Shown piece by piece: positions 81 to 5,412 of a DNA stretch of 5,412 bases. This DNA is from a virus. Every line of letters starts with the position of its first letter. The first letter of the stretch is position 1. The translations under genes and the position numbers were made by a program. Under the pieces are notes generated by a model. The model was not told the origin of the DNA, did no database searches, and was given only the letters and a program-made list of their open reading frames with translations. Location of the stretch: IMG/VR virus record IMGVR_UViG_3300045988_140583, positions 1 to 5,412 of that record; one strand, given 5' to 3'.

Positions 81-119
81 CTTCCTTTGTTTAAACCCAA
101 ATTTCATTTCCTATGGGAG
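1..119. repeat. Terminal redundancy: exact copy of 5294-5412, marking a circular genome of about 5,293 nt
   Basis: Base-by-base comparison shows that 1-119 (atgcgcttattgtcg...ttcctatgggag) is identical to 5294-5412. The offset is 5293. The repeat cuts through a CDS, which fits an assembly wrap-around better than a biological terminal repeat. Confidence 0.93.
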
Positions 120-136
120 AGCGGTTCGCCGCTCTC
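117..136 (+). promoter_or_regulatory. Perfect 8-bp GC-rich hairpin with a TTCG (UUCG-type) tetraloop, ending 4 nt upstream of the tRNA 5' end; possible RNA processing or stability element
   Basis: GAGAGCGG (117-124), TTCG (125-128), CCGCTCTC (129-136). No T-tract follows, so it is not a classical intrinsic terminator. The structure is seen directly; the function is inferred. Confidence 0.45.
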
Positions 137-140
137 ACAT

Positions 141-214
141 GGCGGGTTGGTGTAATGGTAACACGCAAGGTTCTGAGCCTTGATTTGGTAGTTCAAATCT
201 ATCGCCCGCAACCA
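141..214 (+). tRNA. tRNA-Gln (anticodon CUG), 74 nt including a genomically encoded CCA
   Basis: Hand-folded cloverleaf. Acceptor stem is 141-147 with 204-210: six pairs including a T147-G204 wobble, plus a G141/A210 (1-72) mismatch. U8 is T148. D stem is GTGT 150-153 with ACAC 161-164, and the D loop is AATGGTA with G18 G19. Anticodon stem is CAAGG 166-170 with CCTTG 178-182. The anticodon loop is TTCTGAG, giving U33, anticodon CTG at 173-175 and A37. The variable loop is 4 nt (183-186). T stem is GGTAG 187-191 with CTATC 199-203, and the T loop is TTCAAAT. Discriminator is A211 and CCA is 212-214. Confidence 0.85.
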
Positions 215-1795: not shown

Positions 1796-2347
1796 GTGCA
1801 ATATAAAGATGGCAGCACTTGTGATATGACCGTTCAGCAGTATGATTATCTCAAGGCGTCTGCGCAGGCTGTCGCCGATATGGATTTTAAAGCCTCCGCT
1901 GATTCTCAGCCGGCTGAAACTCCTGTTCCCGCTGAGCCTGCACAGAACATCACCGAAAGTCCAGACCTCCGCGACGGCTATGTACCGGAGGAAGGCGAAT
2001 TGCCTTTTGAGGGGAGCTTGACCGCTTATGATGACCGCGCCGCAGATACTCCGGCTTTGTATGCTAATCTCCCTAACGTCTCTAATAGTTTCACTGCTAT
2101 TATGGATTGGTTCGGAGATACGTTTTTTGTCGAACGTACTGAGACGGTGCACAAGTCCGGTTATACGTCCGAAAGGTACTCCTATAATAGTTCGACTCAA
2201 CTTATTCAGCTTCCTTATGAGGAAGATTCCACAACTACGTCTCAAGTTCTCAACCCGCAAGCTTGCGTTTCTGCTTTGCTTGTTGTCCTTGTCTTCGTTA
2301 CTACTGTTACTTGGATTAAAAACGCGATTTGGGGGCGCATGAGCTGA
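1796..2347 (+). CDS. 183-aa acidic, Pro/Ala/Glu-rich protein with a C-terminal transmembrane anchor; start codon uncertain
   Basis: The ORF is open from 1730. The first canonical start is GTG 1796, which has no SD. The C-terminus ACVSALLVVLVFVTTVTWIKNAIWGRMS is a tail anchor. A linker-like stretch SQPAETPVPAEPAQ is present. The stop TGA overlaps the next ATG (2345-2349). Confidence 0.75.
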   Translation: MQYKDGSTCDMTVQQYDYLKASAQAVADMDFKASADSQPAETPVPAEPAQNITESPDLRDGYVPEEGELPFEGSLTAYDDRAADTPALYANLPNVSNSFTAIMDWFGDTFFVERTETVHKSGYTSERYSYNSSTQLIQLPYEEDSTTTSQVLNPQACVSALLVVLVFVTTVTWIKNAIWGRMS

Positions 2348-2460: not shown

Positions 2461-2558
2461 CAGGTGCCATAAATATTTTTAAGAAAGGATGATGACTTCA
2501 GGCTGCTACCTCTACTATTGCTACGCTGCTTTCTCAGGTCGGTGAATTTTTCACTCAG

Positions 2559-2760: not shown

Positions 2761-3384
2761 ATGCTTTATGGTATTCTTATCTTTTGCGTTTGCTGGCTTT
2801 TTGTTTATATCGATAACTATTGCAAAAACCCCTACAAACTTGAGGCTGTTGTTGGTTCAAAAGGCTCTGGCAAGTCTCTGTATATGTCTCGTGTTGCTGA
2901 TAAGTGGCTACATGCTAATAAGGGGCTTATCTATAGCAATATGGGTATTGGTTATGAGTTAGAGCCGGAATACTGGAAACAGCTCTTTGTCCCTGATTCC
3001 CTTATACTCATTGACGAAATTGGTGTTCTGCACTCTAACCGCGATTTTAAAGCTATGCCCCGTGATGCTATTGAGTTTTTCAAAATGCAGCGCAAGTATC
3101 GCTTGACGATTATTGTATCGTCTCAGACCATGGACTTTGATAAAAAGATACGTGACCTTTGTGACCGTATTTACCTTTGCAATCGTATTGGCTGGTTCTG
3201 CCGCCTTACTCCCTACCGCTCTTGTATCGCTATGGAACATCGTCCCGAGGGAGGACAAGAGCTGGTCAACACGGTGCGCAAGGCGGGTCGGGCAAGGTGG
3301 TATACCATCCCTAAGTCCGTGAAGCAGGTAAGTGCCTTAGAATACGATACAGAGCAGGTTATCAGCAAGACCCCCTCGAAGTAA
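2761..3384 (+). CDS. Zot / pI-like P-loop assembly ATPase, compact 207-aa form with an N-terminal hydrophobic segment
   Basis: Walker A is VVGSKGSGKS and Walker B is SLILIDEIG. The downstream stretch FFKMQRKYRLTIIVSSQTMDFDKKIRDL resembles the conserved Zot-family region as I recall it. The N-terminus MLYGILIFCVCWLFVYI is hydrophobic. The SD AGAAAGGA lies at 2743-2750. Confidence 0.88.
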   Translation: MLYGILIFCVCWLFVYIDNYCKNPYKLEAVVGSKGSGKSLYMSRVADKWLHANKGLIYSNMGIGYELEPEYWKQLFVPDSLILIDEIGVLHSNRDFKAMPRDAIEFFKMQRKYRLTIIVSSQTMDFDKKIRDLCDRIYLCNRIGWFCRLTPYRSCIAMEHRPEGGQELVNTVRKAGRARWYTIPKSVKQVSALEYDTEQVISKTPSK

Positions 3385-3437
3385 AAAAAAAGAACTCCCC
3401 GTGCCCCCGTAGGGGGTCAGGGGAGTTCTTTTTTTTT
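3383..3437. terminator. Long bidirectional-type intrinsic terminator hairpin; also a candidate packaging-signal hairpin
   Basis: A perfect 18-bp outer stem pairs A9-GAACTCCCC (3383-3400) with GGGGAGTTC-T9 (3420-3437). An inner stem pairs CCCCC (3404-3408) with GGGGG (3412-3416) around a GTA loop, offset by a 3x3 internal loop. It begins inside the ATPase stop codon. Confidence 0.85.
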
Positions 3438-3496
3438 ACCGGATCACTCCCGCCGTCTTGTCACGCGATAGCGTCTCTACCGCGTCCCCCGTCCCC

Positions 3497-3515
3497 GCAA
3501 GGGCGAAGCCCTTGC
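3497..3515. other. Perfect 8-bp GC-rich hairpin with a GAA loop inside the GC-rich intergenic block
   Basis: GCAAGGGC (3497-3504), GAA, GCCCTTGC (3508-3515). Read directly. Confidence 0.6.
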
Positions 3516-3648
3516 CCTTCCTAAACAGACTGGTAGGGAGTTTCATTGCGCTGCTGGTGGCGTGCGGTCGGGTAAGCTGGGAAAAGAAATCTTGCGTCCT
3601 GCTGCGGCAGTTCGTGCGCGTGCTGGCCGGTGCTCGCTTCGTGAGCAT

Positions 3649-3672
3649 GAATCAAAAACTTGTTTTTGATTC
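3649..3672. repeat. Palindrome with 11-bp arms: GAATCAAAAAC tt GTTTTTGATTC
   Basis: Arm 3649-3659 is the reverse complement of arm 3662-3672. It sits at the junction between the GC-rich and AT-rich parts of the intergenic region. Confidence 0.8.
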
Positions 3673-3730
3673 AAGGCCATAGGGGCGCCAATTAAGGAAA
3701 GTAGGAAATGGGGAGTAATTTTTTTGTCTT

Positions 3731-3770
3731 GAATCAAAATTTTTTTGACCGCGAAAAAAATTTTAGATTC
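3731..3770. repeat. Second GAATC...GATTC palindrome: A/T-tract arms around a GACCGCG loop
   Basis: The sequence is gaatcaaaatttttttgaccgcgaaaaaaattttagattc. AAAATTTTTTT (3736-3746) is the reverse complement of AAAAAAATTTT (3754-3764). The outer GAATC/GATTC ends pair if one A is bulged. An A10 run follows at 3771-3780. Confidence 0.75.
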
Positions 3771-3829
3771 AAAAAAAAAATTGATCCACATTTGCTACTT
3801 TCGGCGCCCCGTCCATCGTTATTTCGTTT

Positions 3830-3860
3830 CCCCGTCCCCTCGTCCCCTCCCGTTTCCCGT
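3830..3860. repeat. C-run iterated motif (CCCCGT / CGTCCCCT x2 / CCCGT), which is G-run-rich on the minus strand
   Basis: CGTCCCCT occurs in tandem at 3833-3840 and 3841-3848. C-runs of 3 or more lie at 3830-3833, 3836-3839, 3844-3847, 3849-3851 and 3856-3858. Related CCCCGT copies lie at 3405-3410, 3486-3491 and 3807-3812. Confidence 0.75.
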
Positions 3861-3872
3861 CTTACGGGAGTC

Positions 3873-3904
3873 GGTGGGCGTTCGTGTAATACGCCCACCT
3901 TTTT
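3873..3904 (+). terminator. Terminator-like hairpin (9-bp stem plus T5) immediately upstream of the rep promoter
   Basis: GGTGGGCGT (3873-3881) pairs with ACGCCCACC (3891-3899) around a 9-nt loop, followed by TTTTT (3900-3904). It could insulate the rep promoter from read-through or form part of an origin structure. Confidence 0.6.
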
Positions 3905-3915
3905 GAAATTTCCTC

Positions 3916-3944
3916 TTGACAACTCCTTCATATTGTGGTAACAT
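3916..3944 (+). promoter_or_regulatory. Sigma70-type promoter for the rep operon
   Basis: The -35 is a consensus TTGACA (3916-3921). A 17-nt spacer follows, then an extended -10, TGgTAACAT (3936-3944). It lies about 30 nt upstream of the rep start. Confidence 0.7.
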
Positions 3945-3975
3945 TTAGCCATGGAAATGAAAGGTGGTTTCTCAC

Positions 3976-5112
3976 ATGAAAACGGTTGTTAAACTTGATT
4001 ATGCTACTTTCGCTTTTGAACAGGGTTCAATTTCTATCTCCAAAATCGAAGATGCTCTTGCTCAGTGTGATTTGCACTTTGCGCAGATTTCTAACGCAAG
4101 TGAGAATTCCCCCTACAATTCCCCTGCGGGCCTTTTCTTTAAGCCGAACAACGGCGCGAAACAGTCTCCGCACTCCTTGCAAGTGTCCGGTCATGGTTGT
4201 GAGCTTTTCCGTCCCACATTGCCGCGGCTCGCGTCACTGATGCAGGATGGCCACGAATTCGGTCACTTTTCCCGTCTCGATTTTTGCTTTGATGTTGTTA
4301 TGACAAAGCAGCGGTGGCGCGAGTTCTATTTGGGTGTTATTTCTGCTTCTGTTGATGAAATGAATTACCCTGAAAAAGCCCGTAAGGTTCGTAAGTTCAT
4401 GTATCAGGGCTATGGCGATTCCACTACTGTCTATATCGGTCGTAGAACGTCTTCTGCGGTCTTTTGCCGTATCTATAATAAGTCTCTGCAAGACCCTGAG
4501 AAAAAGCTCTGTGCGGCTTCTGGAGAGCTTCTGGACTGCCCTGATGATTCCTATATCATTCGTTACGAGATTGAATTTAAATTTACTTCTCGTGTGCGTT
4601 CTGGTTCTCGTTCTGTCTATGACCCGTCTCCGCTTTTTTGGTTTTATTATGAAGACCCTGAGAAGCTTTTCTCCTATCTTCGTAAAGTCTGGAATCGTTA
4701 CGGAAACGAAACTCTTCTTCCCGTTGGCTGGGAAGATATGCAGTTTGTGACCGATATTGAAGCCCGTAATATTCATTTCACTAAGGACTTATTGCATCCT
4801 CTTAGTGATGACCTTGCTAAGAAATTTTCCGTTTCTATCCATACCGAAGAACAAAAGATGTCTTATCTCGCAAATATTTTTGGTCATCGTATCATTGATA
4901 TTTTGCTTTATCGTCCTGAGCTGCTTTTCCTTGCTTGTTGTAAGTGGGAGCAGTATTATAATGAGCGTCTTCCGTTTTCCCCTCTGGCGCTTACACAGGA
5001 AGTTGCACAATTCTCTGAGTCTTCGCGCATTGCTGTTGAGGAGTTTCGCGAAGTTGCTGAAGACCCCTCTCCCTTTATTGAAGATGGGTTTGATGATATA
5101 TCTTTATTCTGA
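3976..5112 (+). CDS. Rolling-circle replication initiation protein (378 aa), resembling the RstA / Rep_trans-type phage and plasmid initiator family
   Basis: I prefer ATG 3976 over the track's GTG 3964, because GTG lies inside the SD AAAGGTGG (3960-3967) and ATG is 8 nt downstream of it. Motifs read from the translation are KLDYATFAF, FSRLDFCFDV, TVYIGRRTSSAVFCRIYNKS and YIIRYEIEFK. As I recall, they match the DW-x-x-F / R-x-D-x-x-x-D / Y-x-G-S-R-x-S...R-x-Y-x-K / R-x-E-x-E pattern of that family. Confidence 0.88.
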   Translation: MKTVVKLDYATFAFEQGSISISKIEDALAQCDLHFAQISNASENSPYNSPAGLFFKPNNGAKQSPHSLQVSGHGCELFRPTLPRLASLMQDGHEFGHFSRLDFCFDVVMTKQRWREFYLGVISASVDEMNYPEKARKVRKFMYQGYGDSTTVYIGRRTSSAVFCRIYNKSLQDPEKKLCAASGELLDCPDDSYIIRYEIEFKFTSRVRSGSRSVYDPSPLFWFYYEDPEKLFSYLRKVWNRYGNETLLPVGWEDMQFVTDIEARNIHFTKDLLHPLSDDLAKKFSVSIHTEEQKMSYLANIFGHRIIDILLYRPELLFLACCKWEQYYNERLPFSPLALTQEVAQFSESSRIAVEEFREVAEDPSPFIEDGFDDISLF

Positions 5113-5130: not shown

Positions 5131-5373
5131 ATGAAAGTTACTGTAGTTGGTAAGTCCCGCCGCGCTGGTACTTCTAAGCAGGGTAAAGACTATGATTTTA
5201 CCACTCTCATGGCCGAATATTCGATGTGTGCAAACGATGACAATGACGGCGTGCAGGTTGATAGAATCAATGTCGACGCTCGCATGATGCCGTATGCGCT
5301 TATTGTCGTTGGCGCTACGTATGACCTCGACTTTGACCGCAACGGTTATCTTCTCGGAATTGAGGAAGCCTAA
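5131..5373 (+). CDS. 80-aa ssDNA-binding protein, Ff gene V protein-like
   Basis: Its size and its position directly after rep match inovirus gene V. MKVTVVGKSRRAGTSKQGKDYDF resembles the f1 gVp segment IKVEIKP...TTRSGVSRQGKPYSL as I recall it. The C-terminal GATYDLDFDRNGYLLGI resembles PGLYTVHLSSFKVGQFGSLMI. The SD GAAAGGATGG lies at 5114-5123. Confidence 0.8.
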   Translation: MKVTVVGKSRRAGTSKQGKDYDFTTLMAEYSMCANDDNDGVQVDRINVDARMMPYALIVVGATYDLDFDRNGYLLGIEEA

Positions 5374-5412
5374 CTTCCTTTGTTTAAACCCAAATTTCAT
5401 TTCCTATGGGAG
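5294..5412. repeat. Second copy of the terminal redundancy (identical to 1-119)
   Basis: Exact 119-nt identity with the window start. It covers the last 80 nt of the ssDNA-binding gene plus 39 nt downstream. Confidence 0.93.

Follow-up and report, generated by a model that had tools for sequence, protein, structure and literature searches.

Protein synthesis in bacteria begins with a dedicated initiator transfer RNA (tRNA), tRNA-fMet, in which a mismatch at 1x72 is a recognition element of the formyltransferase and also bars the tRNA from elongation (10.1101/2021.05.25.445580), and in which a motif of three G:C pairs in the anticodon stem serves P-site binding (PMC5389676). For the Escherichia coli initiator, compensatory mutation has shown a quadruplet pairing in which nucleotide 37 of the tRNA pairs with position -1 of the mRNA (PMC10018350). 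Engineered initiators with a changed anticodon, such as the amber tRNA(CUA) of the RajBhandary laboratory and i-tRNA(AAC), make the complementary non-AUG codon a start in E. coli, with the new anticodon setting which amino acid stands at the N terminus (10.1101/2021.05.25.445580). Viruses encode tRNAs as well, among them those of large tailed phages and the suppressor tRNAs of stop-recoded gut phages, which act at internal codons in large double-stranded DNA genomes. Here, we analyzed the IMG/VR virus record IMGVR_UViG_3300045988_140583 over its 5,412 nucleotides (nt) (the window herein), in which a tRNA gene of 74 nt occupies positions 141 to 214 on the + strand. An earlier note, made from the letters of the window alone, had described it as a canonical tRNA-Gln(CUG) gene. 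Comparison with related phages leads us to consider it likely that the gene encodes an initiator-type tRNA dedicated to a non-canonical start codon of one or more virion genes. Literature searches returned no report of tRNAs in inoviruses, of CAG start codons, or of natural non-CAU initiators, and, in line with the earlier note, tRNAs of small inoviruses are neither annotated nor discussed in the records and literature that we found.

The window is a circular genome of 5,293 nt with a G+C content of 44% and a terminal overlap of 119 nt. It is inovirus-like (Tubulavirales), being a small circle with a rolling-circle Rep, a Zot/pI-type ATPase, small hydrophobic coat proteins, and a single coding strand. 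ARAGORN calls exactly one tRNA in the window, at 141 to 214 (+) with anticodon CTG; the anticodon CUG lies at 173 to 175, A37 at 176, and an encoded CCA at 212 to 214, and G1 (141) and A72 (210) are unpaired. Rfam RF00005 matches 141 to 211 over the full model with 48.1 bits (gathering score, 29; E = 2.8e-8), and the minimum-free-energy fold is a cloverleaf of -23.6 kcal/mol. What the earlier note had read by hand was borne out in these respects: with the ARAGORN call, the Rfam score, and covariation in the stems, the tRNA is genuine and not low-scoring; the first acceptor pair is indeed a G1/A72 mismatch, with A73 and an encoded CCA after it; and the gene stands in sense orientation within the transcription unit that runs from rep to the virion genes.

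The note had further suggested looking for a tRNA at the same position in related inoviruses, and there it is found. All seven related GenBank genomes hold one tRNA at the syntenic position (Rfam, 38.5 to 61.6 bits), as do 33 of the 37 close IMG/VR relatives, where it lies on the zot strand; the remaining 4 are contigs that were cut short. Scanning IMG/VR and bacterial genomes with Zot gave 47 further loci (loci are cited by number, L001 onward, where they must be told apart), and about 50 related genomes of gut inoviruses have a homologous tRNA, including prophages in Oscillospiraceae contigs and deep relatives whose Zot proteins are 27 to 37% identical (L001, L002, L046, and L050 to L052). 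An assembly chimera with host DNA was ruled out by the synteny of the tRNA in about 50 independent assemblies. In an alignment of 39 distinct tRNA sequences, 92% of the cells are paired and the covariation score reaches 0.453; slid controls have 34 to 52% of cells paired and scores of 0.03 to 0.10. Compensatory changes affect five of five anticodon-stem pairs and four of five T-stem pairs, 11 pairs have changed on both sides, and the tertiary nucleotides U8, A14, G18 G19, and T-loop GTTC.A..C are conserved across the copies. The phage tRNA is a genuine tRNA under selection and a conserved feature of a phage lineage. The outermost T-stem pair, 49:65 (alignment columns 47:63), is a C.A mismatch in 21 of the 39 sequences, and in the copy of L033 (1577 to 1650), the anticodon loop spans 8 nt, CTACTGAA, and the D loop is shortened; this copy is possibly damaged or affected by an error in sequencing. 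The tRNA is unannotated in every one of the GenBank records MT135287 to MT135305 and PQ006175 (L001 to L007), several of which use microvirus-style gene names (protein A/C/F/H).

The acceptor end sets this tRNA apart from tRNA-Gln. Pair 1:72 is open in all 39 distinct sequences (G.A, C.A, or A.A) and, as U.C, in the divergent tRNA of L270; the weak but paired U1-A72 of tRNA-Gln occurs in 0 of 39, yet one C-to-U transition at N1 would suffice to restore the pair. Pairs 2:71 to 6:67 (G2 to G6 with C67 to C71) do not vary, nor do A72 and CCA, and 36 of the 39 sequences have A73. G2-C71, C3-G70, G4-C69, and A73 are the formylation determinants known from the work of the RajBhandary laboratory, and they are identical in E. 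coli metY. More broadly, the unpaired 1x72, G2-C71 through G6-C67, A73, and CCA are those of bacterial tRNA-fMet (E. coli metY and metZWV). BLAST of one phage tRNA copy against 5,426 E. coli genomes gave full-length matches to a tRNA-Met gene in every genome, about 4 per genome, one of which sits between argG and rimP and is metY. The ends of metY read CGCGGGGTGG...CCCCGCAACCA, and in L027 and L017 the first 10 and the last 11 nt of the tRNA are the same as in metY.

In a metagenome scan, we also found cellular tRNA-Gln(UUG) genes on environmental contigs (L127 to L246) that share the body of the phage tRNA, namely, the GCGGG acceptor core (G2 to G6 with C67 to C71), A72, a D arm of GGUGYARYGG..RCA, the T arm, and a YUG anticodon. 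Unlike the phage copies, with their unpaired N1 and A73, these real tRNA-Gln genes have a paired U1-A72 in 117 of 117 and G73 in 112 of 117 among the matches listed. The phage tRNA thus looks like a tRNA-Gln-like body carrying two initiator-type acceptor states, an open 1:72 and A73, and the open 1:72 combined with G2-C71, C3-G70, G4-C69, and A73 makes up the acceptor end of an initiator and not of tRNA-Gln. Two proposals of the earlier note give way here. It had taken G1/A72 for the weak 1-72 pair of tRNA-Gln, which in genes with the same body is a paired U1-A72; and it had considered a captured host tRNA, which is difficult to reconcile, at least as a recent capture of tRNA-Gln, with an initiator as nearest E. 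coli relative and with the differences at positions 1 and 73 from tRNA-Gln genes of the same body. The anticodons also go beyond Gln: CUG is found in the window and 44 relatives and UUG in L048, but CGU in L003 and CUA in L270.

The proposed target of the tRNA is a coat-like gene that lacks a canonical start. The Shine-Dalgarno (SD) motif GAAAGG, which at a distance of 10 to 11 nt also precedes TTG 263, ATG 1444, ATG 2761, ATG 3976, and ATG 5131, occurs at 2483 to 2488 (+), 10 nt upstream of CAG 2499, the sole GAAAGG-spaced site in the window without ATG, GTG, or TTG. Between motif and CAG lie two in-frame stops, TGA TGA (2490 to 2495), and then CTT (to 2498), whose last nucleotide, U2498 at -1, is complementary to A37 of the tRNA. 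CAG itself (2499 to 2501, +), the candidate start codon, is complementary to the anticodon CUG and invariant throughout the window clade, whose 38 genomes all have distinct nucleotide sequences. It would open a coat-like gene of 62 codons (2499 to 2687, +), QAATSTIATLLSQVGEFFTQMITWMGQLLDFYEAQPILLVFVLLAIGGIVLRILRRWIPGRS, of which open reading frame (ORF) callers see the last 42 codons only, from ATG 2559. The product has a polar N terminus, a hydrophobic core, and a basic C terminus, and an intrinsic terminator with an 11-bp stem and a T tract (2705 to 2729, +) follows the gene directly. In the Ff phages, a terminator likewise follows the major coat gene VIII. Searches against Pfam and PHROG assigned the 62-amino-acid (aa) window protein to no significant family; only its homologue in L001 matches a virion-protein PHROG.

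Judged by its pattern of substitution, the 20-codon upstream extension of this gene is coding. Across the 38 genomes, synonymous changes are found at Ser, Gly, Glu, Phe, and Ala codons, one Thr codon appears with all four synonyms, and indels comprise whole codons; of the other two frames, one is interrupted by stops in 11 of these genomes and the other in 32. None of the 38 contains an ATG, GTG, TTG, CTG, ATT, ATC, or ATA between the stop and the conserved coding block. The peptide QAATSTIATLLSQVGEFFTQ is predicted to be the N-terminal mark of the CAG-started product, setting it apart from a 42-aa product begun with Met. Two other ideas on the coat start were rejected. A programmed frameshift from the ATG ATG inside the SD motif of the window clade would start from codons 0 to 3 nt from the SD, the frame relation differs in deep clades, and the covariation with the anticodon described below would be left unexplained. 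A window-wide Rfam search (E <= 1) found no cis-regulatory RNA family above its gathering score around the coat start, so a T-box was rejected as well.

The anticodon and the first codon of the coat-like gene change together. CUG accompanies CAG in 45 genomes; these represent five or more deep clades and include L001, L002/L046, and L050 to L052. UUG accompanies CAA in L048 (GAAAGG-N11-CAA), CGU accompanies ACG in L003 (GAGGTG-N6-ACG), and CUA accompanies TAG in L270, where GGAGGTGAATTTG is followed directly by TAG. For L270, the TAG start was predicted from the CUA anticodon before the coat-like ORF was examined, and the ORF reads TAG; its tRNA has a different body, yet shares the unpaired 1x72 (U.C), the G2 to G6 core, A73, and CCA. 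The mRNA nucleotide at -1 is also complementary to tRNA nucleotide 37 (U:A in 45 genomes, A:U in L003, and G:C in L270), which accounts for the unusual pyrimidines at position 37 of L003 and L270. The four anticodon/first-codon states and the three 37/-1 states are all complementary (47 genomes). The 62-aa coat paralogue of L003 is colinear, residue for residue, with the L050 coat protein. In L001, a 68-aa coat ORF (4504 to 4710) begins 44 nt past the tRNA and is absent from the GenBank annotation; the record instead carries an overlapping coding sequence at 4641 to 4901, probably mis-started.

Relatives without the tRNA provide a natural control. A second Zot scan returned L270 and 23 tRNA-less relatives, checked with ARAGORN and Rfam, and the tRNA-less relatives use a canonical start (ATG, GTG, or TTG) at the homologous site; ATG or GTG is found in L049, L054, L251 to L271, and the first coat paralogue of L270. 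The comparison is most direct with a second, tRNA-less prophage in L050, which reads GAAAGGATGATGAATT and then ATG GAA GCT, encoding MEAGATVTIATLLSS, where the window reads GAAAGGATGATGACTT and then CAG GCT GCT, encoding QAATSTIATLLSQ. CAG without a tRNA was seen in L047, L053, L248, and L249, each of which is a contig cut before the tRNA region. A second virion gene, the homologue of the 393-aa gene next to the tRNA, opens with an SD motif and CAG in L046, L050, and L052, and in L052 no canonical start lies anywhere in its signal peptide. Two tandem coat paralogues were observed in deep-clade genomes, namely, L003 (844 to 1032 and from 1046), L270 (about 3982 to 4155 and 4207 to 4392), L049, and L054. 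In L003 and L270, a noncanonical start (ACG or TAG) in one paralogue stands beside a canonical start (TTG or ATG) in its neighbor, a mixture that suggests differential control of two coat species.

The simplest account of the acceptor end, the start-less gene, the covariation, and the tRNA-less controls is that the tRNA initiates the coat-like protein at its cognate codon. The tRNA would be cotranscribed with rep and the virion genes and then cut from the transcript. Its tRNA-Gln-like body and CUG anticodon make charging with Gln probable (or with Glu, if the host uses GatCAB), and the unpaired 1x72 together with G2-C71/C3-G70/G4-C69/A73, a combination that steers bacterial initiators to formylation and away from elongation, could act in the same way here. 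The tRNA would then enter the ribosomal P site at the SD-placed CAG (2499 to 2501) and open the 62-codon gene, with tRNA nucleotides 34 to 37 pairing over four bases with mRNA positions +3 to -1. Synthesis of a virion protein, and in some relatives of a second one, would thereby depend on the phage's own tRNA. As to the reason, we speculate that it is a translational gate, so that the coat is made only in productive infection or when the phage operon itself is expressed, or that it provides a defined N-terminal Gln.

With tRNA-fMet, the phage tRNA has in common a codon at SD distance and the -1:37 quadruplet pairing, which for the phage is seen by comparison of genomes. It differs in its anticodon (CUG, with UUG, CGU, or CUA in relatives, versus CAU), in U11:A24 versus A11:U24, in lacking conservation of the three G:C pairs, in its origin from a 5.3-kb single-stranded DNA (ssDNA) phage, and in apparently serving one or two genes. 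The engineered initiators offer a parallel for the change of start codon by a changed anticodon, and L270 (CUA/UAG) is a natural counterpart of the amber initiator; those, however, were made in the laboratory on the full tRNA-fMet body with the three G:C pairs, whereas the phage tRNA is natural and has a tRNA-Gln-like body. Like the tRNAs of large tailed phages and the suppressor tRNAs of recoded phages, it is virus encoded, and like the latter it would be coupled to late or structural gene expression; unlike those, it belongs to a 5.3-kb ssDNA genome and would act at the first codon of a start-less gene. It is not a stop suppressor in the window, since its codon is CAG and no gene of the window is interrupted under the standard code. 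In L270, the only SD-linked TAG found is the coat start, internal TAGs not having been surveyed systematically.

Several observations weigh against initiation by this tRNA. Its support is comparative throughout, and each variant anticodon state (UUG, CGU, and CUA) is represented by one genome only. An in-frame ATG (36 genomes) or GTG (2 genomes) is conserved at window position 2559, so a shorter, tRNA-independent product of 42 aa is possible. In some deep clades, a start-like in-frame codon lies near the SD motif (GTG or CTG at -9, inside the SD, and TTG at -3 in L270); the exclusion of other starts is thus airtight only in the 38-genome window clade. By the rules of E. coli, the body is unlike that of an initiator. 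The D-stem pair U11:A24 is invariant and of elongator type, in contrast to A11:U24 of the E. coli initiator, and the anticodon is CUG instead of CAU. Many Firmicutes form Gln-tRNA via GatCAB, which reads U1-A72. Finally, the three G:C pairs 29:41, 30:40, and 31:39 are not conserved: among the 39 sequences, 29:41 is A-U in 35, 30:40 is C-G in 21 and G-C in 16, and 31:39 is G-C in 25. An initiator with a middle C-G pair, as in many of the relatives, cannot sustain E. coli (PMC5389676). The window tRNA itself has A-U/G-C/G-C at these positions, a stem found in natural initiators of alpha-proteobacteria and mycoplasmas (PMC5389676).

The classical role of a phage tRNA would be that of an ordinary elongator, here a tRNA-Gln(CUG) supplementing CAG decoding in phage genes; codon compensation is the classical account of phage tRNAs (PMC10264068). 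The anticodon and the likeness of the body to tRNA-Gln genes fit such a role, and CAG is the majority Gln codon of the phage (31 versus 17 CAA). The Gln codon counts of the earlier note were correct (10 CAG and 4 CAA in rep; 5 CAG and 8 CAA in the 393-aa gene), but its suggestion that the tRNA helps in a host poor in CAG decoding is unlikely, because CAG is the preferred Gln codon of the host: long ORFs in the Oscillospiraceae flanks of integrated relatives have CAG:CAA ratios of 72:11 and 292:43, i.e., 87% CAG, which is above the prophages' share, so that CAG decoding should be plentiful. The open 1:72, kept in 39 of 39 sequences with no reversion to U1-A72, and the CGU, CUA, and UUG anticodons of sister phages, each matching the first codon of the coat ORF, speak against an elongator, as do the start-less coding extension and the canonical starts of tRNA-less relatives, which it leaves unexplained. 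We regard this alternative as quite unlikely.

Slightly less credit still is due to the idea that an elongator or suppressor-type tRNA reads codon 2 of the coat gene, a stop or a codon that is otherwise poorly read, and that initiation takes place either just upstream, as at the TTG of L270, or at a GTG within the SD motif. Phage suppressor tRNAs are known, TTG does directly precede TAG in L270, and an in-frame GTG lies 9 nt upstream in L002, L046, L050 to L052, and L003. The window clade, however, has TGA TGA followed by CTT, TTT, or CAT upstream of the CAG in its 38 genomes, and these codons are unable to initiate; an upstream GTG is absent from L001 and L048; and a GTG start would sit 0 to 1 nt from the SD. 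The -1:37 pairing cannot form with a P-site tRNA on the preceding codon. The unpaired 1:72 likewise marks initiators, not elongators (10.1101/2021.05.25.445580).

Integrated relatives bear on the proposal of the earlier note that the tRNA is an integration target. L051, a circle of 5.2 kb whose terminal repeat measures 55 nt, is the free form of prophages in the Oscillospiraceae contigs L052 and L050. The junction between circle and prophage falls at about 3497 to 3524 of L051, in noncoding sequence after zot, and both prophage ends carry the 15-nt repeat ATTTTGTTGCGTTCG (L052, 4755 to 4770 and 10228 to 10243; L050, about 5440 to 5455 and about 10968 to 10982). The tRNA is internal to the prophage, and a phage attachment site (attP) formed from its 3' part was rejected, as no junction lies inside the tRNA in the comparison of L051 with L052 and L050; integration at the tRNA is thereby contradicted. 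The absence of a phage-encoded integrase implies a host recombinase, perhaps Xer-like. The left copy of the repeat lies within a perfect palindrome, AACGCAACAAAAT-CTTT-ATTTTGTTGCGTT.

More broadly, the cloverleaf might serve as a DNA or RNA structure in complementary-strand priming in the packaged ssDNA, as the earlier note had proposed, as a packaging signal, in mRNA processing or stability, or as an attachment site. It does lie on the packaged strand beside a conserved hairpin, and inoviruses such as the Ff phages need structured minus-strand origins and packaging signals. Such a role requires neither the invariant tertiary nucleotides and CCA nor an anticodon that changes in step with a codon at a distance of 2.3 kb, and so leaves the agreement of anticodon and coat first codon unexplained; the large AT-rich palindrome in the noncoding region 3385 to 3963 is a better origin candidate, and the prophage junctions after zot, marked by ATTTTGTTGCGTTCG, dispose of the attachment site. 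As the sole function, a structural role is very unlikely; as a secondary role of the cloverleaf beside decoding, it is possible. An anti-defense function, as a decoy or as a replacement tRNA that withstands host anticodon nucleases, is the least probable of all, since this hypothesis, put forward for phage tRNAs in general (PMC10264068) and compatible with the unusual anticodon loops of L003 and L270, leaves the start-less coat ORF, both covariations, the initiator-type acceptor, and the canonical starts of tRNA-less relatives unexplained.

If initiation by the tRNA is extended to the relatives, gut filamentous phages, and possibly tailed phages, would possess a natural orthogonal initiation channel in which CAG, CAA, ACG, and even UAG act as private virion starts, invisible to the host's initiator tRNA and to gene callers and gated by expression of the phage tRNA, which we hold to be probable, if with slightly more reserve than the function in the window. 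A pattern scan of IMG/VR revealed many tRNAs with the unpaired-1x72/GCGGG acceptor scaffold in tailed-phage contigs (L055 to L125). Most have a CAU anticodon, some of those with the initiator-typical GGG/CCC anticodon stem; non-CAU anticodons are the Leu-type CAG in L060, L061, L100, and L123 and the Arg-type CCU in L079, L093, and L098. These CAU, CCU, and CAG contigs are tailed-phage fragments, not inoviruses; only L093 gave start candidates, and in the contigs with a CAG anticodon no start-less ORFs with an SD motif and CTG were found.

L093 (IMGVR_UViG_3300045988_053116, reverse strand) has its tRNA at 5180, with anticodon CCU, U37, an unpaired G1xA72, and C73-CCA. An ORF at 6321 to 6782 encodes a Terminase_4 small subunit (Pfam, 24.9 bits; cutoff, 24.7), and a second, portal-like ORF runs from 11700 to the end of the locus on the same strand as the tRNA. 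They open right after a stop, as GAAAGGAGG-N7-A and AAAGGAGG-N9-A, respectively, each followed directly by AGG, with no ATG, GTG, or TTG nearby; private start codons may therefore extend beyond inoviruses. The metagenome scan for anticodon variants added one new variant among the matches listed, AGU in L234. This inovirus-like fragment of 2,319 nt carries a tRNA at 2150 to 2223 (reverse strand) with C1xA72, C73, and the Thr-type anticodon AGU. Its gene order is rep, an ssb-like gene, a hairpin, the tRNA, and a signal-peptide protein with an SD-ATG start, and the contig ends before any coat gene, for which the anticodon predicts an ACU start.

Were it confirmed, this would be the first natural dedicated tRNA to reassign a start codon instead of a sense or stop codon, and it would mean that a mobile element can add to the "universal" set of starts, AUG/GUG/UUG. 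A translational AND-gate would control the most abundant, potentially toxic membrane protein of a 5-kb virus. The noncanonical start would also account for the truncated or missing major coat genes in annotations of these common gut inoviruses, and the presence of a lone tRNA gene in a phage would gain a further possible explanation. The system would offer a natural precedent and parts (the tRNA scaffold, SD-N10-CAG, and tuning through nucleotides 37/-1) for the engineering of orthogonal initiation in E. coli, and, as the three-G:C rule is not obeyed, a test of how strict that rule is in Firmicutes ribosomes.

The remaining genes of the window are all on the + strand. Rep_trans, the rolling-circle replication initiator (phrog_27843), occupies 3976 to 5112, with a likely start at ATG 3976, 11 nt past GAAAGG. 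It is followed by the gene for an 80-aa RstB-like, putative ssDNA-binding protein (5131 to 5373; the circle closes at 5293, which equals 0, and 5294 to 5412 are the assembly overlap, a repeat of 1 to 119), directly 5' of a hairpin and the tRNA. Directly 3' of the tRNA lies the 393-aa signal-peptide virion protein gene (263 to 1444, with a TTG start in the window), then genes for small hydrophobic proteins and, by profile match, a stand-alone Zot-type assembly ATPase (2761 to 3384). The best + strand promoter-like site is found upstream of rep at 3916 to 3944 (TTGACA-17-TAACAT with an extended -10 TG); this putative promoter, a consensus match only, could drive a unit of rep, the 80-aa gene, the tRNA, and the virion genes. 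Over 27 to 42% of its length, the window has 84 to 85% nucleotide identity to four unverified GenBank "Inovirus sp." genomes from pigs.

The hairpin at 113 to 140 (+) is GC rich, GGGAGAGCGG-TTCG-CCGCTCTC, folds with -16 kcal/mol, and ends just before position +1 of the tRNA. Its slot is filled in most relatives by a hairpin that ends 0 to 5 nt before +1 and has no T tract; the at least five unrelated hairpin sequences found there in different clades indicate that structure, not sequence, is kept. Once RNase P has cut, the hairpin may shield the rep/80-aa mRNA at its 3' end; alternatively, it may be an attenuator. The 579-nt noncoding region between zot and rep (3385 to 3963) contains a long AT-rich palindrome (3680 to 3812), probably the replication origin or packaging region; plant-microRNA Rfam matches to both of its strands were rejected as spurious effects of the palindrome. 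The frame of a 183-aa ORF (1796 to 2347, GTG start) is open for a further 66 nt upstream (1730 to 1795) with no canonical start there (TTA ATA ATC GAA...), and the PHROG profile of its family has 21 extra N-terminal positions; translation may in fact begin at ATA or ATC.

In L050, the second, tRNA-less inovirus prophage adjoins the first in inverted orientation (about 10980 to 19276), and beside its ssb-like gene lies an Rfam ssNA-helicase RNA motif (RF03070; 18643 to 18688, - strand) with 53 bits (gathering score, 41.5). L047 (CAVDWO010000002.1, labeled Alistipes onderdonkii) is a 96-kb contig that ends inside a phage of the clade; the phage part extends from the 57-aa gene through zot, includes a CAG-start coat gene, and diverges right after zot. 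Its host label or the join may be wrong, as strong SD usage fits Firmicutes over Bacteroidota.

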